From IMG/VR virus record IMGVR_UViG_3300045988_028451, positions 1 through 43,666 of that record: DNA of 43,666 nt; one strand, 5' to 3'. The notes beneath the pieces were generated by a model. It saw only the letters and a list, made by a program, of their open reading frames with translations. It was not told the origin of the DNA and did no database searches. Position numbers and translations under genes: made by a program. This document shows positions 1,448 to 43,666 of this stretch, piece after piece (within the stretch, counting starts at the first letter, position 1; each line of letters starts with the position of its first letter). The DNA is from a virus. Its lineage: Duplodnaviria > Heunggongvirae > Uroviricota > Caudoviricetes.

Positions 1448-1642
1448 ATGAAACACGAATATGACCGCAAGCCGGCACGTGACATCGTACCTGGCGACAT
1501 GATTTTCAACGTTAAGACCCGCCAGCCTGTTGCCGTTGATACTGTGTTCGTCGAGTCAAACGGTAAACTGGTTATCGAAGATGTAACAGGCAACGTTACC
1601 GCGTTCGGGCGTAAAGAGCTGGTACTCTACGTTAAGGATTGA
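1448..1642 (+). CDS. hypothetical protein
   Basis: ORF with AGGA RBS, tightly packed in the replication operon. Confidence 0.5.
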   Translation: MKHEYDRKPARDIVPGDMIFNVKTRQPVAVDTVFVESNGKLVIEDVTGNVTAFGRKELVLYVKD

Positions 1643-1644
1643 AC

Positions 1645-3069
1645 ATGTCTAAATTTATCCGTCGAGGGTACCAGAAGCTCATGACTTCGTTCATGCTGCA
1701 ACACCCGCGCTGTAATATCTGGTGCGGAATGGGGGGAGGTAAAACCTCCTCCACTATGTGGGTGCTCAACCGCCTGTTCCGCAACGGGCAGCTTACGGAA
1801 GAGGACCGCGTGTTAATCCTTGCCCCGTTACGTGTTGCGTCCGGTACGTGGCCCGCTGAACAAGAGAAATGGCAATTCCCTTGTCTGCGTGTCGTAGATG
1901 CAACTGGTTCGGAGAAGCGCCGCATCGCGGCGCTGGAGTCAGATGCTAACGTGGTGTGCACTAACTACGAAGTTATCGAGTGGCTAATTGACTACTACGG
2001 CAAAGACGACTGGCCTTTTACGGTTATCGTTGCCGATGAAAGCACGAAGCTTAAATCGTTCCGCAGCCGTTCGGGTGGTAGCAAGCGGGCAAAGGCGCTC
2101 AGCAAGGTTGCGTTCGGAAAGGTTAAGCGTTTCATCAACCTGACAGGCACACCGTCACCAAACGGCCTCAAAGACTTGTGGGGTCAGAACTGGTTTATCG
2201 ACGCTGGCGAGCGCCTCGGCTCTTCGTATACGGCATTCACAGACCGCTGGTTTAACTCGGTACAGAAAGGTAAGTCGGCTATGGTGCGTGAATATCATGC
2301 GCGACCGGGTGCAGATAATGAAATTCATCAGAAGATGAAAGACATCAGCCTGACCATCGACCCTGCCGAGTGGTTCGGTTGTGAAGCGCCGATTATTGTG
2401 CCGGTTGAAATCGACCTGCCGAAGAAAGCGCGTCAGGCGTACATCGATATGGAGGAGAAGTTATTCGCTGAGCTGGAGAGCGGAGAAGTCGAAGCGGCTA
2501 ACGCGGCAGCAAAGACGTCGAAGTGTTTACAGATTGCATCTGGTGCTGTGTATGTATCAGGACCGGACGGCGAAGCAACCAAAGACTGGGAGAAAGTGCA
2601 CGACACGAAACTGGATGCGCTAGAGTCGATTGTGGAGGAGCTACAGGGTGCACCGTTACTAGTGGCCTATCAGTTTAAGCACGAACTTGAGCGTATCCTT
2701 AAGCGATTCCCTCAGGCACAGGCGTTCGCCAAAGGTGCGAAGGGCAATAAGCAGATGGAAGCGTGGAACCGCGGTGAAATCGAAATCTTATGCGTGCACC
2801 CCGCGTCAGCCGGGCATGGTTTGAATTTACAGGATGGAGGGCATCATCTGGCGTTTATAAGTCAGGGGTGGAACCTCGAGCACTATTTGCAGGTTGTCGA
2901 GCGCATAGGCCCTGTTCGTCAGAAACAGGCTGGACACGAGCGCCCGGTGTTCCTCTATCACATCGTCGCTAAAGACACGCTGGATGAGGTTGTTGCCGCG
3001 CGCACCGACGAGAAGAAATCTGTACAGGAAGAATTGCTTAATTACATGAAGAGACGAGGTAAGAAATGA
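1645..3069 (+). CDS. SNF2-family helicase
   Basis: Walker A-like GMGGGKT, DEST box and LTGTPSPN motif characteristic of SNF2/RAD54-type ATPases; ATG at 1645 after AGGA RBS (ORF track lists upstream TTG at 1639). Confidence 0.8.
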   Translation: MSKFIRRGYQKLMTSFMLQHPRCNIWCGMGGGKTSSTMWVLNRLFRNGQLTEEDRVLILAPLRVASGTWPAEQEKWQFPCLRVVDATGSEKRRIAALESDANVVCTNYEVIEWLIDYYGKDDWPFTVIVADESTKLKSFRSRSGGSKRAKALSKVAFGKVKRFINLTGTPSPNGLKDLWGQNWFIDAGERLGSSYTAFTDRWFNSVQKGKSAMVREYHARPGADNEIHQKMKDISLTIDPAEWFGCEAPIIVPVEIDLPKKARQAYIDMEEKLFAELESGEVEAANAAAKTSKCLQIASGAVYVSGPDGEATKDWEKVHDTKLDALESIVEELQGAPLLVAYQFKHELERILKRFPQAQAFAKGAKGNKQMEAWNRGEIEILCVHPASAGHGLNLQDGGHHLAFISQGWNLEHYLQVVERIGPVRQKQAGHERPVFLYHIVAKDTLDEVVAARTDEKKSVQEELLNYMKRRGKK

Positions 3070-3386: not shown

Positions 3387-3390
3387 GAAA

Positions 3391-3419
3391 AGGCCCCGTT
3401 TGGGGCCTTGTTTATTTAA
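3391..3419. terminator. bidirectional rho-independent terminator between convergent operons
   Basis: GGCCCC-GTTT-GGGGCC hairpin followed by TTGTTTATTT; T-rich on the opposite strand too. Confidence 0.7.
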
Positions 3420-12789: not shown

Positions 12790-12897
12790 TCTTTAATCCT
12801 TTGGTTAAGAGGTTACAGGTTAATGGTAAATGCGCCAGACGGGAACCACCCGCTTTTCGTGTGCGACACTAGGCGCAAAATTATTCTATCACACTAC

Positions 12898-12929
12898 TTG
12901 CGCACCCCAACATAATAGGATACTATTCA
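12898..12929 (+). promoter_or_regulatory. sigma70-like promoter (TTGCGC-N17-TACTAT) with embedded palindromic operator AATAGGATACTATT
   Basis: -35 at 12898-12903, -10 at 12921-12926, GGAG RBS and ATG at 12968 downstream; same element recurs six more times. Confidence 0.5.
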
Positions 12930-12967
12930 CTTACACCAACAATGTTAACTCAAACAGGAGCTACACC

Positions 12968-13159
12968 ATGACAGGTATTACTATGTTCTTCTTAATCATT
13001 ATCGTTTTAGTTTATTTTATCCCGTTTTTAGTGGCCCATATGCGGGGTCATAAAGCGAAATTAGCGATATTCATGGCCAATCTGTTTCTTGGCTGGGTTC
13101 TGCTGCCGTGGGTATTTATTTTAATCTGGGCTTGCAACTCGAATGTCAAAGAGAAGTGA
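12968..13159 (+). CDS. superinfection immunity-like small membrane protein
   Basis: 63 aa, two hydrophobic helices and FLGW...WxxxLIWA pattern resembling the Imm_superinfect family. Confidence 0.55.
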   Translation: MTGITMFFLIIIVLVYFIPFLVAHMRGHKAKLAIFMANLFLGWVLLPWVFILIWACNSNVKEK

Positions 13160-13198: not shown

Positions 13199-14329
13199 AT
13201 GGCCCAGATTAAAATAACCGACGAACAGTTACAGGAAGAATTGAACGCCGGAACAAAGATTATCGACATATCCCGTAAATACGGAATCTCAGACCGCGTT
13301 ATCCGTATCCGTAAAGCGAAGCTGGCTAAGAAAGGTGTAGGCCACGGTCGCGACGTTAGTCACCTTGTGCCTGACGGCTACAAGATTAAAGGTACGTCGT
13401 CTCTGGTGGACGAGTTCGGCAACACTAAACTGCAATGGGTTAAGACCGACACTGACGCAGAACGTCAGGTCGAGTTAATGAAGGCCGTAATCGAAGGCAT
13501 GAAGTCGGAGATTACCCCCGTTGCTCCTGTTAAAGCCGTTCGCGCCAAACGCGACGATAAACTACTCAATCTTTACACTGTGTCTGATTTCCATCTCGGC
13601 ATGCTGGCCTGGGCCGACGAGAGCGGCGACGACTGGGATATGAAGATTGCTGAAGACCTGTTTTCTCGCTGGTTCGATGCGGCATTCCAGAAAGCGCCGG
13701 ATGCAGGAACTGGAGTTATTAACCTGCTGGGCGACTTCGCGCACTTCGACAGTCTGGATGCGGTTACCCCCGCAAGTGGTCACGTTCTTGATGCGGACAC
13801 TCGCTATCAGAAACTTGTCCGCTACATGATTCGTATGGTCCGCCGTGTTGTCGGTATGGCGCTGGTTAAGCATAAAAATGTTCGCTTGCTTATCGTGCAA
13901 GGAAACCACGACGAAAGCGGAATGATTTGGTTAGCTGAGATGTTTAGTACGCTGTACGACAATGAGCCTCGTGTGTTCGTCGATACGTCGCCAGATGTTT
14001 ACAAGATGGTGCAACACGGCAAAACGACGCTGTTCTTTCACCACGGGCATAAGGCACGATTCGACGCTATCGAACCGGTTATGATTGCCAAGTTCCGCAA
14101 AGCATTTGGCGAAAGCGTTTACAGCTACGCCCACATAGGCCACCTCCACCATCAGAAGATTGTGGAAAGCCGTAACATGATTGTTGAGCAACACCGCACC
14201 CTGGCGGCTAAAGACGCCTACGCCTCGCGCGGTGGATGGATGTCAGGCCGTAGTGCAAATGTAATTACCTATAGTGCCGAATATGGCGAGGTCGCACGTT
14301 TAACTATTTCACCGGAGATGCTGGGATGA
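13199..14329 (+). CDS. HTH domain + calcineurin-like metallophosphoesterase
   Basis: Metallophosphoesterase motifs DxH (SDFHLG), GDxxxxD (GDFAHFD), GNHDE, HHGH, GHLHH; N-terminal HTH-like IIDISRKYGISDRVI. Confidence 0.7.
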   Translation: MAQIKITDEQLQEELNAGTKIIDISRKYGISDRVIRIRKAKLAKKGVGHGRDVSHLVPDGYKIKGTSSLVDEFGNTKLQWVKTDTDAERQVELMKAVIEGMKSEITPVAPVKAVRAKRDDKLLNLYTVSDFHLGMLAWADESGDDWDMKIAEDLFSRWFDAAFQKAPDAGTGVINLLGDFAHFDSLDAVTPASGHVLDADTRYQKLVRYMIRMVRRVVGMALVKHKNVRLLIVQGNHDESGMIWLAEMFSTLYDNEPRVFVDTSPDVYKMVQHGKTTLFFHHGHKARFDAIEPVMIAKFRKAFGESVYSYAHIGHLHHQKIVESRNMIVEQHRTLAAKDAYASRGGWMSGRSANVITYSAEYGEVARLTISPEMLG

Positions 14330-14746: not shown

Positions 14747-14750
14747 AGAA

Positions 14751-14779
14751 AAAGGCCCCGAAAGGGGCCTTAGTTTTAT
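14751..14779. terminator. bidirectional rho-independent terminator
   Basis: GGCCCC-GAAA-GGGGCC hairpin flanked by A-run upstream and TTAGTTTTAT downstream; between convergent genes. Confidence 0.7.
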
Positions 14780-21669: not shown

Positions 21670-21987
21670 GTTTCCCCTTTCTCGATAAGTAAAGCCCCGC
21701 CTTAAAGCGGGGCGCTAGTCCTTATCATTTAAACATAGAAACGGCGTAATCTCAGTAAACCAGTTACTTTTTACACAAGCAATAGAGTATGGCCCTTCCG
21801 AACGCGTCAGCGTAACTACACTCAGGACTTACGTCCAGCTCCGTTACCTGCCGCGCCGCGGTCGCTTGCTCATACTTCACAAGCTCAGGTGGAGCTTATC
21901 ATATTTTTAGTGAAAAGTCAAATATTCGAATAGTTTATTCCAACATTTACAATTGAGTGGAATAACTGGAATACGTAAATAAATAGT

Positions 21988-22019
21988 TTGCGTGCACCAA
22001 CATAATAGGGTACTATTCA
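21988..22019 (+). promoter_or_regulatory. sigma70-like promoter (TTGCGT-N17-TACTAT) with embedded operator AATAGGGTACTATT
   Basis: -35 at 21988-21993, -10 at 22011-22016; GGAG RBS and ATG at 22044 downstream. Confidence 0.5.
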
Positions 22020-22043: not shown

Positions 22044-22565
22044 ATGGTTACTACAGTAATTACTTTCCCTGCGTATGTAGGGGCGAAAATATGCAGGGCT
22101 AAAAATGATGTTCGCTACTATTTGAACGCTTTTTACATAGACCCTGAAGGATTGATAGTGTCTACGGACGGTCATAGATTGTTCTGCGACAATGTGAAGA
22201 CCAACGTTGAGAAAGGGACTCTCATAGACATCAAAGGGAGAGAGCCTTCTAAATTTAACTACGCGGAGGTAAACCACGACAACGGCAGTGTATCTTTCTA
22301 TGACGATAATCGTGCGCTTATATGTACACTTCCGGTAGATGTTGTAGAAGGAAACTTTCCTGACTGGAGACGCGTGGCGCACATCACACCGGGTGTTGTC
22401 GACAGTATAGGGTTCACCCTGCGTTATTTGGCAGACGCGTACAAGATTTCTAAGGCATACAAAAATGAAATTGCTCGTTTTGATTTCCAGGACCAAACCA
22501 GAGGATGCAAAATACAATTTTCAAACACGGCCTTTATGGTGTTAATGCCTGCGCGATTTAAATAA
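22044..22565 (+). CDS. truncated beta sliding clamp (DnaN-like) protein
   Basis: 173 aa with DVRYYLN, TDGHRL, GNFPDWRRV and C-terminal VLMPARF, which I recall as matching conserved beta-clamp segments (DVRYYLNG, ATDGHRLA, GRFPDYRRV, VVMPMRL); own promoter and terminator; opposite strand to neighbours; AT-rich by eye. Confidence 0.6.
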   Translation: MVTTVITFPAYVGAKICRAKNDVRYYLNAFYIDPEGLIVSTDGHRLFCDNVKTNVEKGTLIDIKGREPSKFNYAEVNHDNGSVSFYDDNRALICTLPVDVVEGNFPDWRRVAHITPGVVDSIGFTLRYLADAYKISKAYKNEIARFDFQDQTRGCKIQFSNTAFMVLMPARFK

Positions 22566-22569
22566 AACT

Positions 22570-22593
22570 AAGGCCCCATTATGGGGCCTTTTA
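22570..22593. terminator. bidirectional rho-independent terminator
   Basis: GGCCCC-ATTAT-GGGGCC hairpin followed by TTTTAT; between convergent genes. Confidence 0.7.
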
Positions 22594-23749: not shown

Positions 23750-24826
23750 TTATACCGACCTAAGATATTCAGCAACCCTGTTATCTAACGCCGCCATCTC
23801 CTTCAAGGTTAAAGGTCTACCAAAAGCGTCGACGGATATTACCCGGAATTCCTCTGGGGATATCCCACTATTCCTGAATATAGCACCGCGGGTAGGTCCG
23901 AGTGCTTCATCCACGAACCATGCCGGTTGCTGTTTCAGGAACTCGTAATAGGTGGTGTCCGCGCTTACCTGCATACCGCCGTCCGCACCCTTAGCCGCGC
24001 GTTTTGCGCCTTTATCGAGGAAGTCGAACTCCGAACTGATTACAGGCGCGGTGGTGCTTCGGCAATTAGGATGCGCTGGTGGCATCGGCCCTTTACCAAT
24101 TTCCCACGTCATTCCGTCTCTGGCCCTGCAAATCGTGCTGGTGCGGCTGTCCAGCGTTGACACCCACTCGTATTTCTCGATGATGTCGTCGTTCCGGCGG
24201 TACGTCTCGTTACGGGCTTCATTGGATACGTGAGACAGCGCGGTGCGGATTACGGTAGCCGCGTTACGTTCAGAGATGTCAGCCAGTCCGCCAGCGCCTA
24301 CGACATTCTTAACAATCTGTCGTGTTGTCTGACCTTGTACGAACCCCATCTTAACGCCGGTTACGAGACGTGCTACTTCGGTTTCACCCCATCCCGACAT
24401 CAGCTTAGTGAAATCAACAGGCTTGTCGCTTAATGATAAGGGTTGAAACTCGGCAGCGGACCACACCTGTTCGGCGGTAGGCGTAACAAATTCCGCATCT
24501 ACGTTGGTGGTCAGTGTCTTTACATTCCACTCGGCCTCATACGCCGCCAGTTCCATAAGGTCTTCTGTCAGCTTTGTTTGCCAATCGCCGGTAAGTCCGG
24601 TTAGCGCTTCTTCAAGGTCGAGTAACAGTTTATTCAGTCGCGCAGTGCTCCGCCCGTCGTCACCGAATAACAGCACCCGCCGTTTTATTTCGTCCCGCAT
24701 CTCCTTAATGAACGGCGCGAGGTCTTTCACCTCACCGGATGCAGTGCGTTGCAGCCATATCTGGTGGCTGATTAGAGATGTAAGTAAGCTCATAGATAAA
24801 CCCTGTGACGCTAAAGTTAATAGCAT
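23750..24826 (-). CDS. head morphogenesis protein (Mu F-like / SPP1 gp7-like)
   Basis: Conserved HPNCRST-type motif (PPAHPNCRSTTAPV) and position directly downstream of portal gene. Confidence 0.75.
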   Translation of the reverse strand: MLLTLASQGLSMSLLTSLISHQIWLQRTASGEVKDLAPFIKEMRDEIKRRVLLFGDDGRSTARLNKLLLDLEEALTGLTGDWQTKLTEDLMELAAYEAEWNVKTLTTNVDAEFVTPTAEQVWSAAEFQPLSLSDKPVDFTKLMSGWGETEVARLVTGVKMGFVQGQTTRQIVKNVVGAGGLADISERNAATVIRTALSHVSNEARNETYRRNDDIIEKYEWVSTLDSRTSTICRARDGMTWEIGKGPMPPAHPNCRSTTAPVISSEFDFLDKGAKRAAKGADGGMQVSADTTYYEFLKQQPAWFVDEALGPTRGAIFRNSGISPEEFRVISVDAFGRPLTLKEMAALDNRVAEYLRSV

Positions 24827-30129: not shown

Positions 30130-30158
30130 AATATAATAGGGTCTAGGATAATAGTCAA
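30130..30158 (-). promoter_or_regulatory. sigma70-like promoter (TTGACT-N17-TATATT) for the small-gene operon
   Basis: On minus strand -35 TTGACT (30158 to 30153) and -10 TATATT (30135 to 30130), 17-nt spacer; gene start at 30095 downstream. Confidence 0.4.
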
Positions 30159-30180
30159 CTAGTCATTACGGAAAATAGAT

Positions 30181-32802: not shown

Positions 32803-33302
32803 TTAGAGCACTGCTGTAAGTCGCTACACCACAGAACCAAACGATAGTCATGTTCACATTCCTGTGTGTCAATCTTGTATTCCACTATGTCTGCGTATGT
32901 TCCATCCCAAATCCACGACCGCTTTTCTGCTGCTACACTGTGTTTCGGCTCCTCCCCGTTGCGATACCGGATAAATACCATAGTCCCATCCGGCACAGGT
33001 TGTCGTGCACCATAATGCGGCCTCCAGGCGTTGTACTGAGTATCTTCCTTACGGCAACCAGATTGCTCTGCTGCTATATAAGCGCCTACGTCACCTGTAG
33101 CTGTAGCCAACGCCTTATGCAACCCCTTAATATGTTCTGACGCATCACGTAACTGATTCTTGAGTGACAACACCTCGTGCGCCAGGTCTTCGCACTGTTG
33201 CTTGTACGGGTTGCTATTTACCTGCTGCCGTAGTTGGTCAATCAGCCACTCGAATACTTCGTTTTTGTTACTCATCTTCTGTCTCTCCTCTCGCTTATTC
33301 AA
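32784..33302 (-). CDS. hypothetical protein with C-terminal Cys cluster
   Basis: 172 aa ORF; CEHDY...C...CSKCG. Confidence 0.45.
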   Translation of the reverse strand: MNKREERQKMSNKNEVFEWLIDQLRQQVNSNPYKQQCEDLAHEVLSLKNQLRDASEHIKGLHKALATATGDVGAYIAAEQSGCRKEDTQYNAWRPHYGARQPVPDGTMVFIRYRNGEEPKHSVAAEKRSWIWDGTYADIVEYKIDTQECEHDYRLVLWCSDLQQCSKCGVIK

Positions 33303-33573: not shown

Positions 33574-33706
33574 TTACCCCAAACTCATTAATGATTTGAG
33601 CCTTGTAGAAGTTGCCGTGTTTAGCCAGGTGGTACGCCTGCGCCATAGTCATCTCGCGGTAAGTTGCAGCGCTGTTTTCGAACTCCATAATCATCAAAGT
33701 AACCAT
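33557..33706 (-). CDS. hypothetical small protein (49 aa)
   Basis: ATG at 33706 preceded by GAGGAGAGG RBS, first gene after promoter at 33733-33766. Confidence 0.35.
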   Translation of the reverse strand: MVTLMIMEFENSAATYREMTMAQAYHLAKHGNFYKAQIINEFGVIDYEF

Positions 33707-33732
33707 ATTCTGCCTCTCCTCTCGTTTGTGTA

Positions 33733-33766
33733 AATGAATGGTATCCTATTCTCCCCCAGTGTGCAA
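33733..33766 (-). promoter_or_regulatory. sigma70-like promoter (TTGCAC-N17-TACCAT) with degenerate operator copy
   Basis: Minus-strand -35 at 33766 to 33761, -10 at 33743 to 33738; operator AATGGTATCCTATT. Confidence 0.4.
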
Positions 33767-34734: not shown

Positions 34735-34755
34735 TCATCTGTCTCGTTCCGATAA

Positions 34756-34788
34756 GTGAATAGTATCCTATTATATTGGGGTGTGCAA
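34756..34788 (-). promoter_or_regulatory. sigma70-like promoter (TTGCAC-N17-TACTAT) with embedded operator AATAGTATCCTATT
   Basis: Minus-strand -35 at 34788 to 34783, -10 at 34765 to 34760; block near-identical to the 12898-12929 element in opposite orientation. Confidence 0.5.
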
Positions 34789-35036
34789 GAGAATAGTTAC
34801 GTTGCCGTTGTGATTCTTCGGGGAAGGTTGTGCCTTTATTCTTATTACTTGGTAACTAAAGGGCAGGCCTTAAGCCTGCCCACTAATCGTTACATTTTTA
34901 CGGTTGCGAATCTACGGCACATTAAGAAAATCAGATACTTAAGAGATATGCCGCCGATGAGAATATAGCTTGCCCAGGGCAACCGGAGATACTTAGGAAG
35001 GAAAGTTACGATAATTCTAATGTTCAGTAAGCCTGT

Positions 35037-35068
35037 GTTTAACCCTTTGCTTGACGCACGGGTTAAAC
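35037..35068. promoter_or_regulatory. perfect 9-bp inverted repeat GTTTAACCC-N14-GGGTTAAAC enclosing a TTGACG hexamer
   Basis: Arms at 35037-35045 and 35060-35068, read directly; upstream of HTH gene at 35220. Confidence 0.4.
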
Positions 35069-35219
35069 ATTCTTACAAGGTGAACAAGAATAAAAGTAAC
35101 TAAGATATAGAAGCACCTTAAACGAAGATTTCCATAATGTCAATAGGTGCGATTATGTTTGATTTCCCATTATTCGCAATGTATACTTGGTTTCGTTGAC
35201 TGATAATGAGGGTTTGAGA

Positions 35220-35390
35220 ATGACACAGAATGAGGTAGCTGAGCGTATTGGGGTTACTCGCCGCACGCTTAATAACTGGTTAAAGAGTGGGAAGTTCCCG
35301 GATTGTTGTATCCGCATTATGGGCCGCCGCCAGCCCGGTACGTTTGACCCAGAGAAAGTGGAAGCGTGGATTAAGGAGAACGTTAAATGA
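35220..35390 (+). CDS. small HTH DNA-binding protein (AlpA/excisionase-like fold, putative regulator)
   Basis: MTQNEVAERIGVTRRTLNNWLKSGKFP is a helix-turn-helix signature; GAGGG RBS (ORF track lists upstream start at 35187). Confidence 0.5.
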   Translation: MTQNEVAERIGVTRRTLNNWLKSGKFPDCCIRIMGRRQPGTFDPEKVEAWIKENVK

Positions 35391-35620
35391 CCGAGTTCCA
35401 GTCACGCGTATTTACGGCGGTCGTTTCGTTAACCCGCAAAAAAGGGTCGTGCAGCGTTATGGACTTGCGCCGTAGTTATTTTAAGTACTATAGTTCCGCC
35501 ATTATTGAAGGGTCGTTGAAGGTACTGGTTAAATCGGGTGTCGTGAAAAACGTTGGTGGGAAATATGGTGCTGTTGCTGAAGTTCGCGGAATGGCTGCTA
35601 CTTTAGAAGACCTGGAATAA
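35387..35620 (+). CDS. hypothetical protein
   Basis: ATGA overlap with upstream gene. Confidence 0.45.
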   Translation: MTEFQSRVFTAVVSLTRKKGSCSVMDLRRSYFKYYSSAIIEGSLKVLVKSGVVKNVGGKYGAVAEVRGMAATLEDLE

Positions 35621-35678
35621 AAGAAAGCCCCGACGCGGTGAACGCCGAGGCCAAATTACTTGCTGAAGGAAATACAAC

Positions 35679-37919
35679 ATGTCCGATGTAATTTTATCCT
35701 ACTCGTGGTCCCGTCGCAACGCGCGGGCGGAGAAAAAGGATATAAACGTCAGAACCACACATACGGCAACACTGGACGACCTGAAAGAGTTAATCCAGCC
35801 GCTTGATGTCGTTCGCGATGGGATTAACCCTAAGACCGCGCCCGGGTATATCACCGCTGCGTGCGACTCTACACACAGCACCGTAAAAGACCCGGAAACC
35901 GGTGACTTTAAGCAAGCGCGTAAAGGCTTCTTCTATCGCTGTGACGCGTCTGTAAGCAAATCGTCGCTGGCGTACCTGGACTTCGACAGCGCAACACCGG
36001 AAGAGTATCAGGAAGCTGTGCGCCTGGTTAAGCGCAGCCGCCTGGCTATGTGCCTCTACACCACGGCATCCCATACCGATGAGTCACCACGCTTTCGCGT
36101 CGTCATGCCGCTGGGCCGCCCGGTTGAAGGTGGAGACATCATCCGTGTTCGCCATGGATTGCTGGAACACTTCTTCAAAGGCATGGGCGCGGACCGCAGC
36201 GGTTTCACTCTGTCGCAGCCTATGTACCTGCCGCCGGTTGGCTCTACCGTTATCTGGTCGCGCCGAAACGACCTGATTGACCCGGAAGAGTTACTGGAAG
36301 GCATCCCGGATTACGAGGTGAGCAGCGCATCTGACTACCAGATACCAGAAGAACTGCGTACCGCGTTTACTGATGCGTTTGAGGCGCTGGCGTTTGAGTA
36401 CGGCGGTGTTATGACGCCCCGCGGCCTTAAGATGCCAGCTACGCCGGAACATGCAGAAAATTACAGCGACCCTACGCCGCGCCCGGACGACTTCCTGCTG
36501 TGCTTCCCGCGCGAGGGCTACGAAGCGCCGAACGTAACCATGATCCACGACACTGACATTACGGCAACCGAAGGCATGTCGCCGAAAGAGGTGTGGAAAT
36601 ATGCGTGTGATGCGACTGGTCTCCCGTTCAGTGAAGTCGCTGAGGCTATCGGCTGGGGCGCACGTGAATCTGTTTCATGCAGCCTCGACGACCTGGAAGA
36701 CGACGAGGACCCCGAGGAGGACGAGCTACCGGAACCGGTAAAGGCTGATTTCGTCGTAGAAGGGTATATGCCGTCAGATTGCATCTGGGATATTGTCGGG
36801 GAATCCGGCACGTACAAATCATTCTATACGCTGGGGATGATGTACCTGAGCGCCGCCGGATACCGGTTCGCCGGGGCGGACACCCAGCGTTGCCATCACT
36901 TCTATATCGACGGTGAGGGTGGCGCGGCTACACGCACACGTATTGACGCACTAGCGGCTAAATATGGTGAGGAAGGTAAAGATTATGTACATGTCATCGA
37001 CATGGGTGAAGTCGGAAAACTTAAAAACCTGATTAAGTTGATGCGTGAAACTGCGGGTGACGAACCCATCGGCATGGTTGCCTTCGACACCCTAAACCAG
37101 ACCCTGGCTTTGACGATTGATAAGTTCGACGAGAACAGTTCATCGACGGCAATCGGCATGGGTAAAGTCATTGCCATCCTGAAAGAAGTACGTGACGTGA
37201 CTAAAGCCGCAGTAGGCGTTGTCCATCATACGCCGAAGGGTGGGAAGAAAGCCCGCGGCAGTGGTGCGCTGTATGCTGGCGTCGACGTGGAACTGACAAT
37301 TGAACGCGCGACCGACCGTCAGATAAACGTATACCACTCTAAATTTAAGCACGGGCCCCAACAGAAAACGGTTGGCATGGTGCTGGAGTCGGTACAGTTC
37401 CGCGAAGCGCCACCGCCGAAAGAGTACCGTGCTGTTGAGTTCCTGGGTAGCACAGAGGAATACGGCACAATCGTAAACCTCGACCTGCCAGAACCACATA
37501 AGGCACTTGTGCTGATGCCGTGGGGCTTCGAGCCGTTCAAAACTGACGAGGAGAAAGAGCGGGAAGAAGGGCTGACGAAAGAAGGTAAAGAAAACGTAAA
37601 GAATGCTGTAAAACGCGGGAAGGATGAAGGGCGTAAGGAATCAATACTCGCCGCGCTGGAAGACCTGCAGCAGGCCGACGACACCGGACGCGGTTTTACC
37701 CAACGGCAGATAGTGGCGAACTCTGGCGACCACGCTATCACCAACCACCATCTCGAGAAGATGCTGAAAGACGGTGAGTTGATGCTTGGATGTGATGTTA
37801 ACGGTGAAGTTATACCGGGCACATACAGGATACCGGAAAAGATGGGCGACAGATTAAGACCGAAGACAATATACGAACCGAATGAAATGCTGGTGGTGAC
37901 AGAGGAGGATTTGGAGTAG
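35679..37919 (+). CDS. DNA primase/helicase (N-terminal primase-like domain, C-terminal RecA-like NTPase)
   Basis: 746 aa; Walker A GESGTYKS and RecA/DnaB-like NTPase core in the C-terminal half; acidic linker. Confidence 0.65.
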   Translation: MSDVILSYSWSRRNARAEKKDINVRTTHTATLDDLKELIQPLDVVRDGINPKTAPGYITAACDSTHSTVKDPETGDFKQARKGFFYRCDASVSKSSLAYLDFDSATPEEYQEAVRLVKRSRLAMCLYTTASHTDESPRFRVVMPLGRPVEGGDIIRVRHGLLEHFFKGMGADRSGFTLSQPMYLPPVGSTVIWSRRNDLIDPEELLEGIPDYEVSSASDYQIPEELRTAFTDAFEALAFEYGGVMTPRGLKMPATPEHAENYSDPTPRPDDFLLCFPREGYEAPNVTMIHDTDITATEGMSPKEVWKYACDATGLPFSEVAEAIGWGARESVSCSLDDLEDDEDPEEDELPEPVKADFVVEGYMPSDCIWDIVGESGTYKSFYTLGMMYLSAAGYRFAGADTQRCHHFYIDGEGGAATRTRIDALAAKYGEEGKDYVHVIDMGEVGKLKNLIKLMRETAGDEPIGMVAFDTLNQTLALTIDKFDENSSSTAIGMGKVIAILKEVRDVTKAAVGVVHHTPKGGKKARGSGALYAGVDVELTIERATDRQINVYHSKFKHGPQQKTVGMVLESVQFREAPPPKEYRAVEFLGSTEEYGTIVNLDLPEPHKALVLMPWGFEPFKTDEEKEREEGLTKEGKENVKNAVKRGKDEGRKESILAALEDLQQADDTGRGFTQRQIVANSGDHAITNHHLEKMLKDGELMLGCDVNGEVIPGTYRIPEKMGDRLRPKTIYEPNEMLVVTEEDLE

Positions 37920-37928
37920 GTAAAAAGA

Positions 37929-37947
37929 AAGGGGCATTAAGCCCCTT
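37929..37947. terminator. bidirectional terminator hairpin between convergent primase and HTH genes
   Basis: GGGGC-ATTAA-GCCCC; T-rich tract (TTTCTTTTTT) on minus strand. Confidence 0.5.
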
Positions 37948-38152
37948 CACCTAGCGCCAGCCACTTGGCGTCTACCTCCAGCACTTCCGCCAGTTTAAAC
38001 AGCGTTGCCGGGCGGACGTCCTGGGTTACCCCAAGTGCCAGCTGGTTAATTGCGCCCTGGGAAACCCCGGTCAGCACCGCCAGACGGCGCTGGGAGATGC
38101 CGAGTTCTTTACGGCGTTTTTCTACACGGATGCCTAGTTCAGATGGTTGCAT
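37937..38152 (-). CDS. XRE-family HTH regulator (Cro/CI-like)
   Basis: 71 aa with LGISQRRLAVLTGVSQGAINQLALG helix-turn-helix; divergent from operator-containing early promoters. Confidence 0.7.
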   Translation of the reverse strand: MQPSELGIRVEKRRKELGISQRRLAVLTGVSQGAINQLALGVTQDVRPATLFKLAEVLEVDAKWLALGEGA

Positions 38153-38172: not shown

Positions 38173-38245
38173 TTGATATGTGAATAGTATCATATTAATT
38201 ATTTTAGAAAAGCCCATTGACATGTGAATAGTTCACTATTATAGT
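38173..38245 (+). promoter_or_regulatory. early promoter region with two operator copies (TTGATA... AATAGTATCATATT; TTGACA-N17-TATAGT with AATAGTTCACTATT)
   Basis: -35 TTGACA 38217-38222, -10 TATAGT 38240-38245, operator in spacer; second operator-like copy at 38183-38196; GAGAGGAGAG RBS and ATG at 38277. Confidence 0.5.
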
Positions 38246-38276
38246 TAGCCCATACCAAACGAGAGGAGAGAAACAA

Positions 38277-38777
38277 ATGTTAGAGAAATTCTTAGTATTA
38301 CTGGAACGTTTCGTAGTTGCACATGAACTGATTGCTGCGAATAGTGCGAAACAGTTCGCGCCAACTACTGCCAAAGAGGCTGCCGCAGTAGCCGCTCATA
38401 AAATTGAGCAGTTCTCTGAAAGTATTAAAGAAGAAACAAAAGAAATCCCGGTTGAAGGTGAAGACATCGTCGACACTAAACCGGCAGAAGAAGAGAAGCC
38501 AAAACGTAAGCCGCGTAAAGCTAAAGTAGAGGAACCGACGCCAGAGCCGGAGGAAGAGAAAGAAGAAGTCGATTACCAGTCTCTTCGTGACCATATTCAG
38601 GCTATCGACGATGCAATTAACGAAGGTCCGAGCGATGCCGCGTGCGACGATTCTGATGAACTGCTGGAAGAGTTCACCGGTAAGAAGATGAAGATTGCCG
38701 CGATTAAAGACGAAGACCTGGCTGAGTACCTGGAGCGCCTGACAGCAATCAAGAACAAGTATTTCGAAGAAGAATAA
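38277..38777 (+). CDS. highly acidic early protein
   Basis: 166 aa with long Glu/Asp-rich segments (EPTPEPEEEKEEVDY, DDSDELLEEF); first gene of the operator-controlled operon. Confidence 0.5.
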   Translation: MLEKFLVLLERFVVAHELIAANSAKQFAPTTAKEAAAVAAHKIEQFSESIKEETKEIPVEGEDIVDTKPAEEEKPKRKPRKAKVEEPTPEPEEEKEEVDYQSLRDHIQAIDDAINEGPSDAACDDSDELLEEFTGKKMKIAAIKDEDLAEYLERLTAIKNKYFEEE

Positions 38778-39222: not shown

Positions 39223-39426
39223 GTGAATAAATCTTCTGGTAGGCTTGAGGATTACCCGAAAACATTAATATACAAAAGTGAAAAGCATCACATGGCCGCT
39301 GTTGACGCAAGACGTCAGTTCGCAGGAATGTTGCAACAGTTAAGCGACTTACATCGCGATGATTCTTTCACCCCCTCAGAAGAACAGCTACAGGCATTAA
39401 ACTTGTATTTGGAGAGTTTACGATGA
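39223..39426 (+). CDS. hypothetical protein
   Basis: ORF; ATGA overlap with the following nuclease gene. Confidence 0.4.
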   Translation: MNKSSGRLEDYPKTLIYKSEKHHMAAVDARRQFAGMLQQLSDLHRDDSFTPSEEQLQALNLYLESLR

Positions 39427-40664
39427 TTCTAAAAGAACGCGGCGGCAATAACGATGTTCACGCCTTACTTTCGCCGTCAGGTGCTAAAAAATGGCTGTCA
39501 TGCGCTGCATCACTGGCCTGTGAAAAAGATATTCCTAACACGTCGGGTAAATCCGCCGTTACGGGGACAGCGTGCCACACCATAGCTGAAGTCCATCTCA
39601 ACGCCTATATCCGCGGCACTGCGTTGCCGTTAGAGCGTGAAGTTGGCGCTTACGTGCTGGATGAGGGTAAAGGCCAGATTAAGGCGCTAATCAGCCCGAT
39701 GAAAGGCGCGGTACTGATTACGGCGGACATGATTGAGCAGGTGCGAAAGTACACCGACTACTGCAAAGCGATTATAGACGTAGCGACTTATGCCAAGCTC
39801 GAGATGCGGGTAAATCTTACTGAGGTGTTGCATCCTGGTTACGAAGGCGTTGAGACGTTCGGAACCGCTGACCTTGTTGCCGTTCAGGAACTGGCTAACA
39901 CCGACGAGCACATGCTGATTATTGGCGACCTGAAAACCGGGCGGCATCGTGTAGAAGCGAAAGAAAACAAGCAGCTTATGCTCTACGCTCTAGGTGTTTA
40001 TCGCCGACTCAAGAGACGTTATAACATAACAACCGTTCGTCTGGTCATCTTTCAGCCATACGCTGGCGGCGCGTCGGAGTGGGACATCTCGGTTGAAGGT
40101 CTGGAACTGTTCGCTAAGTTTGCGCAGAAACGGGCGCTGTTAGCTCTTGATGCGTATTTCCGTGGTAAAAAGAACCTGAAAGCGTCGGACTTCAGGCCGT
40201 CTGTCGACGGTTGCCAATGGTGCCGTTTCTCAGAGCAGTGCGCCGCGCGTACAAAAACCGTCAACGCGGTGCTGGCGGAAGAACTGGAGGACGACTTTGC
40301 GCTGGAACTTACGCCGGAGGAACTCGTAGCTGAGTACGAGAAGTTGCCGTTGTTGCGCCAGCACATCGACAAGGTTGAGAAAGCTATGGCTGCCGCGTTG
40401 CATTCCGGTAAGAAAGTTCCTGGGTACAAGCTGGTTGAAGGTAAGATGGGCAATCGTGCGTGGAAAGACGCGGAGAAAGTAACAGAACTCTACGGCGACA
40501 AGCTGACTAAAGAAGTGCTCATGACGCCGACCGAAGCGGTTAAAGTTGTGCCGGAAGAAGAACTGAAAGACTTCATCACACGTAAACCAGGTGCCCCATG
40601 CATCACAACGGCAGACGACAAACGGCCTGAGTGGAATCAGGTTAGTGAAGAAGATTTGGAATAA
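39423..40664 (+). CDS. PD-(D/E)XK nuclease with C-terminal Cys cluster (Cas4/RecB-like exonuclease)
   Basis: GTADLVAV ... IGDLKTG nuclease core and C-terminal CQWCRFSEQC cluster. Confidence 0.7.
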   Translation: MILKERGGNNDVHALLSPSGAKKWLSCAASLACEKDIPNTSGKSAVTGTACHTIAEVHLNAYIRGTALPLEREVGAYVLDEGKGQIKALISPMKGAVLITADMIEQVRKYTDYCKAIIDVATYAKLEMRVNLTEVLHPGYEGVETFGTADLVAVQELANTDEHMLIIGDLKTGRHRVEAKENKQLMLYALGVYRRLKRRYNITTVRLVIFQPYAGGASEWDISVEGLELFAKFAQKRALLALDAYFRGKKNLKASDFRPSVDGCQWCRFSEQCAARTKTVNAVLAEELEDDFALELTPEELVAEYEKLPLLRQHIDKVEKAMAAALHSGKKVPGYKLVEGKMGNRAWKDAEKVTELYGDKLTKEVLMTPTEAVKVVPEEELKDFITRKPGAPCITTADDKRPEWNQVSEEDLE

Positions 40665-40668
40665 AGTG

Positions 40669-40697
40669 TTGACACCTGAATAGTTGGCTATTATAGT
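40669..40697 (+). promoter_or_regulatory. sigma70-like promoter (TTGACA-N17-TATAGT) with operator AATAGTTGGCTATT in the spacer
   Basis: -35 40669-40674, -10 40692-40697; GAGGA RBS and ATG at 40754 downstream. Confidence 0.55.
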
Positions 40698-40753
40698 TCT
40701 AATCACTGGCCGGGCAGCTTCCCGGAGTAAACTAAAAACTGAGGAATCGAGAT

Positions 40754-41380
40754 ATGGGTATTAAGCTGAATCTGCGTAAAGTAAACACTGCCTGGGTTAA
40801 CGTATTCGAACGCGAAAAAGACCGTGAAAACGACGATGGCTCCATCACTAAAGGCCAGTACAGCGCGACTATAATCCTGCCGTCTGACCATGCTCAAATC
40901 GATGCGCTATACGATACTGTTTACGCTGTGGTTGAAGAAGCGTTAGGTGCAGCCGCTGCCGAGAAGTGGATGAAGTCAAACTACGGCGAAGGTAAGCACA
41001 TGGATAAATGCGCGATTAAAGACATTGCCGAGCGAGACAATCCATTTGAAGACTTCCCGGAAGGCTTCTACTTCAAAGCGAAAGCACAAAAACAGCCGCT
41101 GATTGTAACCTCTAAAAAAGGCGAAACTCAGGTAGAGCAGGACTTCAATGTAGACGGCGAACAGATTGAAGGTGAACAGGTTTACAGTGGCTGCGTTGCT
41201 AACGTAAGCGTAGAAATCTGGTTCAGCCAGAAATATAAAGTCCTCGGTGTTAACCTGCTGGCAATTAAATACGTCGGCGAAGGTAAAGCGTTTGGTGGTT
41301 CTAAAGTTGCTGCAAGTGTTAGTGACCTGGAAGACGACGAAGAAGATGAAGCACCGCGCCGCGAACGTCGTCGCCGTTAA
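40754..41380 (+). CDS. single-stranded DNA-binding protein-like (acidic C-terminal tail)
   Basis: 208 aa with acidic C-terminal tail SDLEDDEEDEAPRRERRRR; immediately upstream of DNA polymerase. Confidence 0.5.
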   Translation: MGIKLNLRKVNTAWVNVFEREKDRENDDGSITKGQYSATIILPSDHAQIDALYDTVYAVVEEALGAAAAEKWMKSNYGEGKHMDKCAIKDIAERDNPFEDFPEGFYFKAKAQKQPLIVTSKKGETQVEQDFNVDGEQIEGEQVYSGCVANVSVEIWFSQKYKVLGVNLLAIKYVGEGKAFGGSKVAASVSDLEDDEEDEAPRRERRRR

Positions 41381-41400
41381 TCTCTGAATCAATTTAACTA

Positions 41401-41425
41401 AGGCCCTTCATTGGGCCTTTTTACT
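41401..41425 (+). terminator. hairpin between SSB-like and polymerase genes (possible attenuator)
   Basis: AGGCCC-TTCATT-GGGCCT followed by TTTTACT. Confidence 0.4.
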
Positions 41426-41439
41426 AAGGGTCGAAAATA

Positions 41440-43666
41440 ATGAGTTACCTGTTCTTAGACTTTGAAACATTCTCCGAAGCCGATTTAAAGAAAGTCGGCT
41501 CCTACGCTTACGCCGAGCATCCAACTACCGAAGTGCTTATCTGTACATACGCTTTTGACGACGAGCCTGTGCAGGTGTGGGATTGCACCGACGGCAGTGA
41601 CATGCCGGGCGATTTGCACCGCGCGTTACGTCGTCTGGTTAAGCCTAACAGTCGCATTAAGATGGTGTGGCACAACGGCTCAATGTTCGACAGGCTCATA
41701 ATGAAGCACTGCTGGGGCTTTGATATTCCGGTACGCAACACCATTGATACGATGATTTGGGCGTTTCGTCATGCATTGCCGGGTTCACTTGACTCATTGT
41801 GCGAAGTGCTGGGCGTGTCTGCTGACAATGCGAAGGATAAGCGTGGCAAGGCGCTGATTCAGCGTTTCTCTAAACCGACACCGAAGAACTACAAAATCAG
41901 ACGCTACACCGCCGAGACGCACCCTGATGAATGGGCGTTGTTCATCAAGTACGCCGTGAGCGATATTACCGCGATGCGTGAGGTATTCCATAAGCTGCCA
42001 CGTTGGGGTAACTCGGAGTTCGAGGACCGTGTACTGGAACTGGACCAGTTAATCAACGACCGCGGGTTTAAGGTTGACGTGGCACTGGCAGAAGCCGCGA
42101 TTGAAGCCGTGGAGAAACACAAAGCGCAGTTACAGGAAGAGGCCCAACGCAAATACGGCGGCTCGCTTACTGGTAAAGACTTTCTGCCGATTCTGCGCGA
42201 ACTTGCCCCTGCGCACCGAATCCACAACGTGCAGAAGTCAACGCTGAATGACCTGCTGGCCGACGATGATTTACCGGACGACGCACGCACGATTATCGAA
42301 ATGCGCCTCGGGGCCGCGTCCACGGCGTCCACGAAATATAACCCGCTGCTGCGGGGCCGCTCTTCGGACGACCGCCGTCGCGGTTGCTTGCAGTACGGTG
42401 GGGCAAAACGTACTCTGCGATGGGCAGGTAAAGGCTTCCAGCCGCAGAACCTGGCACGCGGTTACTATCATGATGATGAGCTGGATAAAGGCATTTCAGC
42501 GTTACTTAAGGGCCGCGCCCATCGCCGTTTTGATGTAGCCAAACTAACGGCATCTACTGTGCGTAGCTGCATAATACCGGAAGCCGGGCATAAGTTTGTC
42601 GTCGCCGATTACTCTAACGTTGAAGGCCGCGGGCTTGCGTGGCTGGCAGGTGAAGAAACCGCGCTCGATACGTTCCGCGCCGGACTGGATATTTACTGTG
42701 TAACCGCAGGCAAGATGTTCGGTATGGACCCTGATGACATTAAGAAAGAACGTAAAGACTTGCGCCAGATTGGTAAAGCGTGCCTTCACCGTCATACCCA
42801 GGTTTTGACCGATGGCGGATTTAAGGATATTATGGCGGTTACATCAACAGATAAAGTATGGAGCGGTGAAAAATGGGTGAATACAAAAGGCGCGCACCTT
42901 ATGGGGTGGAAACCGGTAATAAATGTGGACGGGGTGCTAATGACCGAAGATCACAAAATCTTGGCGCATTCCTGGAAGCAGGCAAAGCAACTCGCTTCAA
43001 ACAGATATATGATGGGCCTAGCCCTGGAGAGAGGTATGGACGCTTGGTTATCCTGCGCGAGTTGCCAAAACGACAAGGCCAAAGACAACTACTCGTCCAA
43101 TGTGATTGCGGAGAGATGCCGGGGCGGGTCTATTATGACAACGTCAGAGCGGGTAAAACCACTCAATGCAACCGCTGCGCCCTTGAAGCAACAAAAAAAT
43201 ATCGTAAACAGTATTTCTGCTACGAAGACGCAATGCCGGATGATGCACACAGAACGCGATTACTCAACCGGCTGTCAGCGGCGATCACGCGAACAACAAG
43301 CCCCAGGGATAAGGGTTATAAAAACTATGGGGCAAGAGGCATCACGGTATTCGACCAGTGGAGGACTGATAAAAGGTCTTTTCTTAGATATGTTCAAACT
43401 CTGGAAGGCTGGGATGACCCGAACCTCGAAATGGATAGAATCGACACAGACGGTAACTACGAACCTGGAAACATTCGGTTTGTCAGCCGTTCTGAAAACT
43501 GCCGAAACAGACGGCAAATACCCGAGCTTCAACGAAAGTATGATGCAGCCGTTGCCCGCATTGCTGAACTTGAGCGGGAAATTAACCTACTGCGAGCCGG
43601 TGTACGACCTGATTGATGTGGAAGACGGCAACCGTTTTCTTATAGCCTCAGACTCTGGCTTTCTTG
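41440..43666 (+). CDS. DNA polymerase I (family A) with 3-prime to 5-prime exonuclease domain, N-terminal part plus intein; continues at 1..927
   Basis: Exo motif LFLDFETFS; Pol A motif A ADYSNVEGR; frame stays open to the window end and continues across the junction (1033 codons including intein). Confidence 0.85.
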   Translation, partial: MSYLFLDFETFSEADLKKVGSYAYAEHPTTEVLICTYAFDDEPVQVWDCTDGSDMPGDLHRALRRLVKPNSRIKMVWHNGSMFDRLIMKHCWGFDIPVRNTIDTMIWAFRHALPGSLDSLCEVLGVSADNAKDKRGKALIQRFSKPTPKNYKIRRYTAETHPDEWALFIKYAVSDITAMREVFHKLPRWGNSEFEDRVLELDQLINDRGFKVDVALAEAAIEAVEKHKAQLQEEAQRKYGGSLTGKDFLPILRELAPAHRIHNVQKSTLNDLLADDDLPDDARTIIEMRLGAASTASTKYNPLLRGRSSDDRRRGCLQYGGAKRTLRWAGKGFQPQNLARGYYHDDELDKGISALLKGRAHRRFDVAKLTASTVRSCIIPEAGHKFVVADYSNVEGRGLAWLAGEETALDTFRAGLDIYCVTAGKMFGMDPDDIKKERKDLRQIGKACLHRHTQVLTDGGFKDIMAVTSTDKVWSGEKWVNTKGAHLMGWKPVINVDGVLMTEDHKILAHSWKQAKQLASNRYMMGLALERGMDAWLSCASCQNDKAKDNYSSNVIAERCRGGSIMTTSERVKPLNATAAPLKQQKNIVNSISATKTQCRMMHTERDYSTGCQRRSREQQAPGIRVIKTMGQEASRYSTSGGLIKGLFLDMFKLWKAGMTRTSKWIESTQTVTTNLETFGLSAVLKTAETDGKYPSFNESMMQPLPALLNLSGKLTYCEPVYDLIDVEDGNRFLIASDSGFL
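42781..43666 (+). mobile_element. intein inserted in polymerase motif B (O-helix), N-terminal and central part (ends at base 66 after the junction)
   Basis: N-extein ...RQIGKA; insert starts CLHRHTQVLTDGG (block A-like), has TEDH (block B-like) and ends ...VAHN + Cys; 299 codons in total. Confidence 0.75.
42873..43616 (+). CDS. HNH endonuclease encoded in an alternate frame inside the intein
   Basis: In-frame stop at 42867-42869, GGAG RBS then ATG at 42873; product has YGRLVILRE, CDCG...CNRC and YKNYGARGITVFDQW...DRIDTDGNYEPGNIRFVSRSENCRNRR, typical of phage HNH endonucleases. Confidence 0.7.
   Translation: MGEYKRRAPYGVETGNKCGRGANDRRSQNLGAFLEAGKATRFKQIYDGPSPGERYGRLVILRELPKRQGQRQLLVQCDCGEMPGRVYYDNVRAGKTTQCNRCALEATKKYRKQYFCYEDAMPDDAHRTRLLNRLSAAITRTTSPRDKGYKNYGARGITVFDQWRTDKRSFLRYVQTLEGWDDPNLEMDRIDTDGNYEPGNIRFVSRSENCRNRRQIPELQRKYDAAVARIAELEREINLLRAGVRPD

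Follow-up and report, generated by a model that had tools for sequence, protein, structure and literature searches.

Which protein, if any, reads the palindrome that recurs within the promoters of the tailed-phage genome IMGVR_UViG_3300045988_028451? The whole 43,666-nt stretch of this IMG/VR record, referred to below as the window, was assigned by megablast to Kagunavirus (Guernseyvirinae), with ~92–94% identity to Escherichia phages Snoke, fPoEco01 and fBC-Eco01, and it also matched hundreds of related Salmonella Jerseyvirus records. An original prediction had described the palindrome AATAG-N4-CTATT (AATAGNNNNCTATT) as an operator shared by sigma70-like promoters in two geometries, which one DNA-binding protein was thought to coordinate; two helix-turn-helix (HTH) proteins, one of the XRE type and one AlpA-like, were named as candidates. 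The dyad symmetry, the several positions that it takes relative to the promoter hexamers and the invariance of its half-sites, as described below, are compatible with one protein acting on many promoters, and the set of promoters is wider than had been proposed. On these comparisons we put at roughly evens the reading in which the palindrome is the operator of a dimeric phage repressor, located inside host sigma70 promoters and most likely bound by the 71-amino-acid (aa), 434-Cro-like XRE protein.

Enrichment of the palindrome

Six exact matches to AATAG-N4-CTATT were found in the window, starting at 1396, 12914, 22004, 34759, 38227 and 40679, against 0.01 expected from 100 shuffles. Allowing one mismatch raised the count to 10 against 1.02 expected, through the addition of 24819, 30150, 33737 and 38183. 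The predicted recurrence across the genome in at least seven copies is thereby borne out, and the palindrome is far commoner than in shuffled sequence of the same base composition. When every 5+5 dyad with a spacer of 0–10 was counted without a preset pattern, AATAG-N4-CTATT ranked first and the runners-up were terminator hairpins. A repeat search independently placed the promoter copies on top, with 1386, 34749, 38173, 38217 and 40669 as the largest direct family and 12898 and 21988 as a second direct pair. The best inverted pair of that search, 12897–12933 versus 34753–34789 (37 nt, 95% complementary), confirms the 34-nt block already noted as common to 12896–12929 and 34758–34791.

With the exception of 24819, every copy overlaps a sigma70-type core promoter facing an operon. 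The near-match at 24819 overlaps a start codon, has no promoter context and was dropped. Each of the nine counted copies overlaps a -35 hexamer, a spacer or a -10 hexamer, and a start codon with a ribosome-binding site follows 25–56 nt downstream of every one of them. In its full form the element reads (G/T)AATAG-N4-CTATT(A/C), and is dyad-symmetric over 14–16 bp.

Promoters carrying the palindrome

In class A, a TTGACA-like -35 hexamer is followed after 17 nt by TATAGT, and the palindrome lies in the spacer. All three class A promoters, which are on the plus strand, have sigma70 hexamers and spacing, with 11 of 12 consensus positions matched at 38217–38245 and 40669–40697 and 10 of 12 at 1386–1414. 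The first two are the two best sigma70-like hits within 28–43.7 kb, and the third is the best within 1–15 kb. At 38217–38245 (-35 TTGACA 38217–38222; palindrome AATAGTTCACTATT 38227–38240; -10 TATAGT 38240–38245) the promoter is divergent from the XRE gene and drives the genes from open reading frame (ORF) 38277–38777 through the DUF2800/Cas4-like nuclease at 39423–40664. The promoter at 40669–40697 (-35 TTGACA 40669–40674; palindrome AATAGTTGGCTATT 40679–40692; -10 TATAGT 40692–40697) heads a Gp2.5-like single-stranded-DNA-binding protein gene (40754–41380) and the DNA polymerase gene. The copy at 1386–1414 (-35 TTGACG 1386–1391; palindrome AATAGCAAACTATT 1396–1409; -10 TATAGT 1409–1414) is located in the 3′ end of a VRR-NUC gene and heads a 64-aa ORF (1448–1642) together with an SNF2-type helicase gene (1639–3069); orthologues of it are present in fPoEco01, LM02P1, fBC-Eco01, Jersey and SETP3. 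This copy was missing from the original list, as was the copy over a -35 hexamer at 30130–30163 described below, while the hexamer coordinates given there for 38217–38245, 40669–40697 and four class B copies were correct.

Just past the 40669 promoter, in the 5′ leader of the Gp2.5-like gene, lies a hairpin CCGGG-CAGCTT-CCCGG (40707–40727). It is near-identical in the Jerseyvirus and Cornellvirus relatives, and the Klebsiella relative has a similar stem of other sequence (L003, L013, L004, L006, L005). A role as translational operator or as stability element is possible.

Class B promoters have the form TTGC(G/A)(C/T)-17-TAC(T/C)AT, with the palindrome over the -10 hexamer. Two of them lie on the plus strand. 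The copy at 12898–12927 (-35 TTGCGC 12898–12903; palindrome AATAGGATACTATT 12914–12927; -10 TACTAT 12921–12926) heads an Imm-like/metallophosphoesterase island, and at the orthologous spot both the 'phage promoter 3' of fBC-Eco01 and a BPROM promoter of SETP3 are annotated. The island runs on the opposite strand within the tail gene block and comprises the Imm-like gene (12968–13159), a metallophosphoesterase/exonuclease gene (13199–14329) and two small ORFs. It had been termed an immunity island, but the immunity is not of the lysogenic kind: the Imm-like protein matches Pfam Imm_superinfect (8.7e-14) and is a T4 Imm-like superinfection-exclusion protein. The second plus-strand copy, 21988–22017 (-35 TTGCGT 21988–21993; palindrome AATAGGGTACTATT 22004–22017; -10 TACTAT 22011–22016), heads a clamp-like 173-aa ORF (22044–22565) for which only weak matches, beta-clamp-like and to PHROG 3007, were obtained.

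The remaining two class B promoters are on the minus strand. At 33737–33766 (-35 TTGCAC 33766–33761; -10 TACCAT 33743–33738) the palindrome has one mismatch (AATAGGATACCATT, 33750–33737), and the orthologous sites in fPoEco01, LM02P1 and fBC-Eco01 carry the exact form. This promoter heads a 49-aa ORF (33706–33557) and small genes further down. At 34759–34788 (-35 TTGCAC 34788–34783; palindrome, again AATAGGATACTATT, 34772–34759; -10 TACTAT 34765–34760) it heads a leftward small-gene operon with 34734–34468 as the first ORF. Class A thus belongs to replication and recombination operons, and class B to leftward small-gene operons and two opposite-strand islands in the structural block.

Several features adjoin these promoters. 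An antisense sigma70-like match, TTAACA-17-TAGTAT (12948–12920, minus strand, 9/12), has its -10 hexamer within the 12914 palindrome and faces the tail chaperone and tape-measure genes. It may form part of a face-to-face promoter pair on one common operator; the other class B copies do not consistently show this arrangement. In the spacers of class B, and in the leaders that follow class A and class B promoters, a CACCAAC(A)/CCAACAT block is repeated (12904–12913, 12934–12944, 1421–1431 and 21995–22003); it may be a second conserved promoter-associated element. In addition, a leader and ribosome-binding block AAACGAGAGGAGAG(A/G)CAGAA precedes several operon-first genes (33277–33296, 33704–33727 and 38257–38276), a repetition which suggests that promoter-leader cassettes were duplicated as units.

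Two further copies fall outside both classes. The minus-strand promoter at 30130–30163 (TTGACT 30158–30153, 17 nt, TATATT 30135–30130; 10/12) is overlapped at its -35 hexamer by a one-mismatch palindrome (ACTAGTTGACTATT, 30163–30150 on the minus strand). It lies downstream of a terminator, and the genes under it are small ORFs and then those for terminase and structural proteins; its mismatch is identical in four Kagunavirus and two Jerseyvirus genomes. A second element of this type was observed at 21913–21926, where a TTGACT -35 hexamer (21921–21916, minus strand) is overlapped by a degenerate palindrome, AATATTTGACTTTT, which reads AATAGTTGACTTTT in the orthologues of fPoEco01, LM02P1 and fBC-Eco01. 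It is directed towards the genes for spanin, scaffold and capsid; a late-side promoter with half an operator is one possible reading.

The last copy belongs to the promoter of the XRE gene itself and consists of an imperfect operator, AATATGATACTATT, at 38183–38196 on the minus strand (-10 TACTAT 38189–38184; TG 38192–38191). Its lone conserved mismatch is the base that makes the TG of an extended -10 element (TG-A-TACTAT). The copy is invariant across 26 Kagunavirus variants, and 'phage promoter 5' of fBC-Eco01 is annotated at the orthologous spot. The original prediction listed 38173–38201 as a weaker class A copy; the copy is real, and is better read on the minus strand as the extended -10 promoter of the XRE gene, TGATACTAT. 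Also among the promoters that share the palindrome are those of the replication and recombination operons, that of the XRE gene and one on the packaging/late side.

The sequence family itself has already been published. The fBC-Eco01 paper (Arch Virol 2023, PMC9825357) reported seven PHIRE 'phage promoters' with the consensus tgAATAGTa-ccTATTat-T, which is the motif of this window, and ascribed them to a phage-encoded RNA polymerase. The GenBank record of that phage (OM272052) annotates them at the same orthologous positions, SETP3 (NC_009232) carries BPROM promoter features at three of those positions, and the Golestan paper likewise lists seven PHIRE promoters. In these sources the operator is not distinguished from the hexamers, nor are the several registers noted or the motif connected with the HTH genes.

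Apart from the published consensus and its annotation, little speaks for a phage polymerase. PHIRE detects repeated motifs only and says nothing about which polymerase uses them, the motif lies within sigma70 promoters that are close to consensus, and an RNA polymerase gene is annotated in none of five relatives, among them fPoEco01, fBC-Eco01, SETP3 and VSiA, whose layout is that of lytic siphophages lacking both an integrase and an RNA polymerase. The large ORFs of the window are likewise all accounted for, those above 700 aa being tail, tape-measure, helicase-primase or DNA polymerase genes. This reading was rejected on gene content, and we assign it next to no probability.

Registers and conservation of the half-sites

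The position of the palindrome relative to the hexamers differs between promoters. Class A has 4 nt between the -35 hexamer and the palindrome, class B has 10 nt, and the Imm-island promoter of Jerseyvirus, TTGCAT-N7-AATAG..C[TATTAT], has 7 nt, which is 3 bp off the register of either class. In the 30150-type promoter the palindrome covers the -35 hexamer, which constitutes a fourth register. What stays constant is that the palindrome lies within the RNA polymerase footprint. With four different registers, the conserved palindrome bases cannot be polymerase contacts.

Each of four Kagunavirus and two Jerseyvirus genomes carried four to eight exact copies at the orthologous promoters. Among 26 unique Kagunavirus sequences of the region upstream of the XRE gene, the half-sites and the TG flank are invariant, a single base in a single genome excepted. 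Variation falls on the two centre positions of the dyad (5 and 6 variants) and on the stretch linking it to the -35 hexamer (5 to >9 variants, including a 1-nt indel). The dyad thus has fixed outer bases, the AATAG and CTATT arms, and a variable centre, as expected of the operators of about 14–18 bp that Cro/CI-type repressors use. Fixed half-sites combined with a variable centre and linker fit an operator bound by a dimer in the major groove, rather than a polymerase contact. When the class A pattern was scanned against IMG/VR, 46 of 50 stretches came from contigs of 24–45 kb and the other four from fragments of 5–8 kb. Among these 50 stretches there was no sign of the pattern outside this phage group, and the XRE gene was present in half of them.

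A different account does without a dedicated factor. According to it, a promoter cassette spread by duplication and inversion, and the symmetry is a by-product of overlap between hexamers that resemble a -10 element (TACTAT, TATAGT, TATTAT and their complements), possibly in bidirectional promoters. The half-site ACTAT(T) is indeed -10-like, class A contains a third half-site copy (ACTAT-T-ATAGT), the antisense match described above overlaps the 12914 palindrome, and the repeat search found leader blocks beyond the operator common to copies, suggesting cassette duplication. However, the left half-site of class A lies in the spacer, where sigma70 makes no base-specific contacts, and it is still invariant while the linker and the dyad centre vary. 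The four registers also speak against a polymerase-defined element, antisense promoters were not consistently found at other copies, and the concerted lineage-specific changes over all copies described below would need either a trans-acting factor or repeated gene conversion. We regard the cassette account as unlikely.

The XRE protein as candidate binder

Only two clear DNA-binding proteins were recognized in the window by Pfam, the XRE protein and an HTH_17 (AlpA-like) protein, and the Pfam search of 28 further ORFs returned no other DNA-binding domain besides a sub-threshold NinH match. The XRE protein (37937–38152, minus strand; 71 aa) matches Pfam HTH_3 at 2.5e-12. Among PDB structures it is closest to 434 Cro (E 2.2e-6) and then to 434 repressor (1.5e-5), over residues 6–68 of 71, so that Pfam and PDB agree on a 434 Cro/lambda-repressor-like HTH fold. 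434 Cro has 71 aa and binds 14-bp dyad operators as a dimer. The XRE gene diverges from 38217, the strongest class A promoter, and is itself preceded by an extended -10 promoter that bears the imperfect operator copy; in Kagunavirus the operator accordingly lies over core promoters including that of the putative regulator.

A second line of evidence comes from the bases flanking the palindrome. Across 117 exact sites in 28 loci, the flank class follows the recognition helix of the XRE protein. With the helix SQGAINQ (or SQSAINQ), 87 of 95 exact sites have G on at least one flank, and with SQSLITH all 22 sites have T on both flanks. The glutamine of helix 3 is invariant across lineages.

The relatives VSiA, PSDA-2 and Klebsiella phage VLCpiS11a all keep an XRE homologue. 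VSiA and PSDA-2 lack AATAG-N4-CTATT and show at orthologous promoters a related element, ATTAG-N4-GTA(A/T)T, in four and three exact copies, respectively (VSiA, L004: 7555, 34246, 37323 and 37939; PSDA-2, L006: 3090, 3791 and 7107); three of these copies show a symmetric TATTA-N6-TAATA. In the Klebsiella relative VLCpiS11a (L005) no multi-copy dyad was found; a single perfect ATACTATAGTAT dyad adjoins its XRE gene, and at least five of its promoters have a different block, TGTTGGTTGCAA, in common, around a palindromic TTGCAA -35 hexamer.

Several observations weigh against an XRE repressor acting at sigma70 promoters. For class B, no more than 7 of the 12 hexamer positions agree with the sigma70 consensus, too few to pass the threshold of the promoter scan; the class B copies are putative promoters, supported by their conserved hexamers, their spacing and their position upstream of operons in six genomes. 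Intergenic background conservation is high within Kagunavirus, which limits the power of the 26-variant pattern, and the correlation between flank and helix comes from only two clades and is thus confounded by phylogeny. The XRE protein is only ~48% identical between Kagunavirus and Jerseyvirus, with four differences in the recognition helix, yet the AATAG/CTATT core is identical. The Jerseyvirus helix moreover resembles that of Cornellvirus, but the cores group otherwise, which is the reverse of a simple recognition code. The Jerseyvirus XRE promoter has a half-site only, and autoregulation is consequently not general. As for the Cornellvirus element, its pattern was drawn up post hoc, has partial dyad symmetry only and is weakly enriched at one mismatch (10 versus 3.9 expected, with 3 of 100 shuffles reaching 10).

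The identity of the core in phages of two host genera despite differing XRE proteins could also point to a host transcription factor common to E. coli and Salmonella or, given that ~30 small ORFs have no Pfam match, to an unannotated small phage protein, for instance of the ribbon-helix-helix type. The TrpR operator has a similar, ACTAG-N4-CTAGT-like layout. On the other hand, the concerted genus-wide difference in the flanks and the Cornellvirus variant point to a factor that evolves with the phage rather than to a conserved host protein. We know of no E. coli factor with the consensus AATAG-N4-CTATT, and positive evidence for any particular ORFan was not obtained. A binder of either kind appears improbable.

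The HTH_17 protein as alternative binder

The second candidate of the original prediction, the AlpA-like protein, is a 56-aa HTH_17 (excisionase/AlpA-type) protein encoded at 35220–35390 on the plus strand, as the first gene of the helicase-primase operon. The operon has a sigma70-like promoter, TTGATT-17-TATACT (35159–35187), without the palindrome. The protein could therefore be conceived as being made early from a palindrome-free promoter and then acting on the promoters that carry the palindrome. In support of this, it is 85–91% identical between Kagunavirus and Jerseyvirus, the two genera with the same exact core, as against ~48% for XRE. It is also absent from VSiA and the Klebsiella phage (local tblastn) and not annotated in PSDA-2, and all three lack the exact palindrome. 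Furthermore, the probable HTH_17 counterpart, as mapped from gene order, is among the four earliest-peaking genes of phage K1B4; the RNA sequencing of this Kagunavirus phage, sampled at 5–120 min and resolved into three gene-level time classes, is too coarse for assigning temporal classes and was not used for that purpose.

Against a role of HTH_17 as the binder, its recognition helix varies within Kagunavirus (VTRRTLNNW, VTRQTINNW, VSPMTLNRW and VSTMTLNRW) while the operator and its flanks are unchanged, and both flank classes are found alongside one identical helix. In Cornellvirus-type phages, which lack the protein, a related promoter element is retained. A search for solved structures gave no significant homologue of the HTH_17 protein. 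Monomeric binding to asymmetric or directly repeated sites is the usual mode of single-domain HTH_17 proteins, which speaks against a 14-bp dyad as target. Finally, the position of the gene, beside a 430-bp non-coding region and ahead of the helicase-primase gene, would equally suit a role at an origin or in replication. HTH_17 as the binder seems quite unlikely, and the evidence, including the 434 Cro homology and the tracking of flanks by the recognition helix, favours the XRE protein as the better candidate.

Two mechanisms known for related proteins were considered and rejected. The class A dyad lies between -35 and -10, as in MerR-type promoters, and the HTH_17 candidate has a MerR-superfamily HTH. 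However, MerR-type promoters have spacers of 19–20 bp, whereas the spacer here is the optimal 17 bp between near-consensus hexamers, and the 56-aa protein consists of the HTH_17 domain only, without dimerization or effector parts. Loading of an antiterminator between -35 and -10 in the manner of P. aeruginosa AlpA was likewise dismissed, as that AlpA is larger, with an N-terminal ring domain and a 6-bp asymmetric binding element, and the 56-aa protein is not comparable to it.

The leftward class B promoter and the HTH_17 gene are separated by ~430 bp of non-coding sequence (34790–35219), which holds a terminator-like hairpin (34861–34881), a perfect 10-bp inverted repeat (35036–35045/35060–35069) and the promoter at 35159–35187. 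Beyond the single 10-bp inverted repeat, no convincing repeats were found in this region, which is a candidate replication origin or regulatory region beside the helicase-primase operon. In VSiA (L004 34354–37005) and the Klebsiella relative (L005 5298–7900) the helicase-primase gene lies directly downstream of XRE on the same strand, without HTH_17. The Kagunavirus and Jerseyvirus arrangement (35220–38152 in the window) has the helicase-primase and XRE genes in convergent orientation, and the HTH_17 gene and a 77-aa ORF come before the helicase-primase gene. This difference in gene order indicates that the replication-regulation module was rearranged between lineages.

Proposed scheme and relation to known systems

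With the XRE protein as repressor, we infer the following course of regulation, including its sign and timing. Host RNA polymerase would fire the palindrome promoters on DNA entry. The accumulating XRE protein would then occlude the perfect operators and block RNA polymerase in every register, turning down the replication, recombination, small-gene and island operons that have perfect sites. It would act more weakly on its own promoter and on the 30150-type promoter, both of which have imperfect sites. The outcome would be a Cro-style early shut-off in a phage without a lysogeny module.

A more far-reaching version of this scheme, which we consider rather unlikely, is that a strictly lytic subfamily times its whole transcription programme by one Cro-like protein and a graded set of operators, with lineage-specific co-evolution of helix and operator. 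The graded set would consist of perfect dyads at the strong early and replication promoters, and of conserved imperfect ones at the regulator's extended -10 element and at the packaging/late-side -35 hexamer. If so, the G-flank of Kagunavirus, the T-flank of Jerseyvirus and the ATTAG/GTAWT element of Cornellvirus would form a natural altered-specificity series, and a phage would order its gene expression without a sigma factor, RNA polymerase or anti-sigma factor of its own.

The closest known parallel is 434 Cro/CI. Here, too, the putative regulator has a single HTH_3 domain in 71 aa, with homology to 434 Cro along almost all of them, the 14-bp dyad has a variable centre and covers the -35/-10 elements of sigma70 promoters, and the regulator gene lies in a divergent promoter region with two operator copies 44 bp apart. 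In contrast to 434, no CI partner, integrase or lysogeny module accompanies it in this lytic group, single operators are dispersed over at least nine promoters instead of forming triplets clustered at two sites, and the half-site is unrelated to ACAA. The window and the annotated relatives accordingly hold no lambdoid immunity region, as judged from a second repressor, an integrase or clustered operator triplets, none of which was found. Dispersed sites under a single regulator, as proposed here, are known from P1 C1 and from the 'stoperators' of mycobacteriophage L5 gp71, where one regulator acts on many sites and several operons are jointly controlled. Those sites are asymmetric and serve the immunity of temperate phages, those of L5 lying also within transcribed regions, whereas the sites described here are dyad-symmetric, confined to promoter cores and belong to a lytic phage.

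Several hundred Guernseyvirinae phages have been sequenced, the group is widely proposed for therapy and for food biocontrol against E. coli and Salmonella, and their regulation is essentially unstudied. The reading of the motif as a sigma70 promoter with an operator would correct a published and GenBank-propagated misannotation as phage RNA polymerase promoters. It would also offer a concrete function for the 'DicA-like repressor' gene, which is a worry in the safety assessment of these lytic phages, and provide a small collection of promoter-operator parts that are strong and probably repressible, along with a candidate regulator of 71 aa. In mechanism this would be one more Cro-type circuit that leaves current concepts unchanged.

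Genome ends and terminators

Positions 1–55 and 43612–43666 form an exact 55-nt direct repeat at the window ends. This repeat is an assembly overlap, indicating a circularly closed or circularly permuted genome with a true length of ~43,611 bp. The DNA polymerase gene crosses the circular junction and is for this reason absent from the ORF list. A scan of the whole window with Rfam at the gathering threshold gave zero matches. Bidirectional terminator hairpins of a near-identical family, AAGGCCCC-loop-GGGGCCTT, were observed at 3388–3409, 14750–14771, 22565–22590 and 41396–41422, where they mark the boundaries between oppositely oriented gene blocks.

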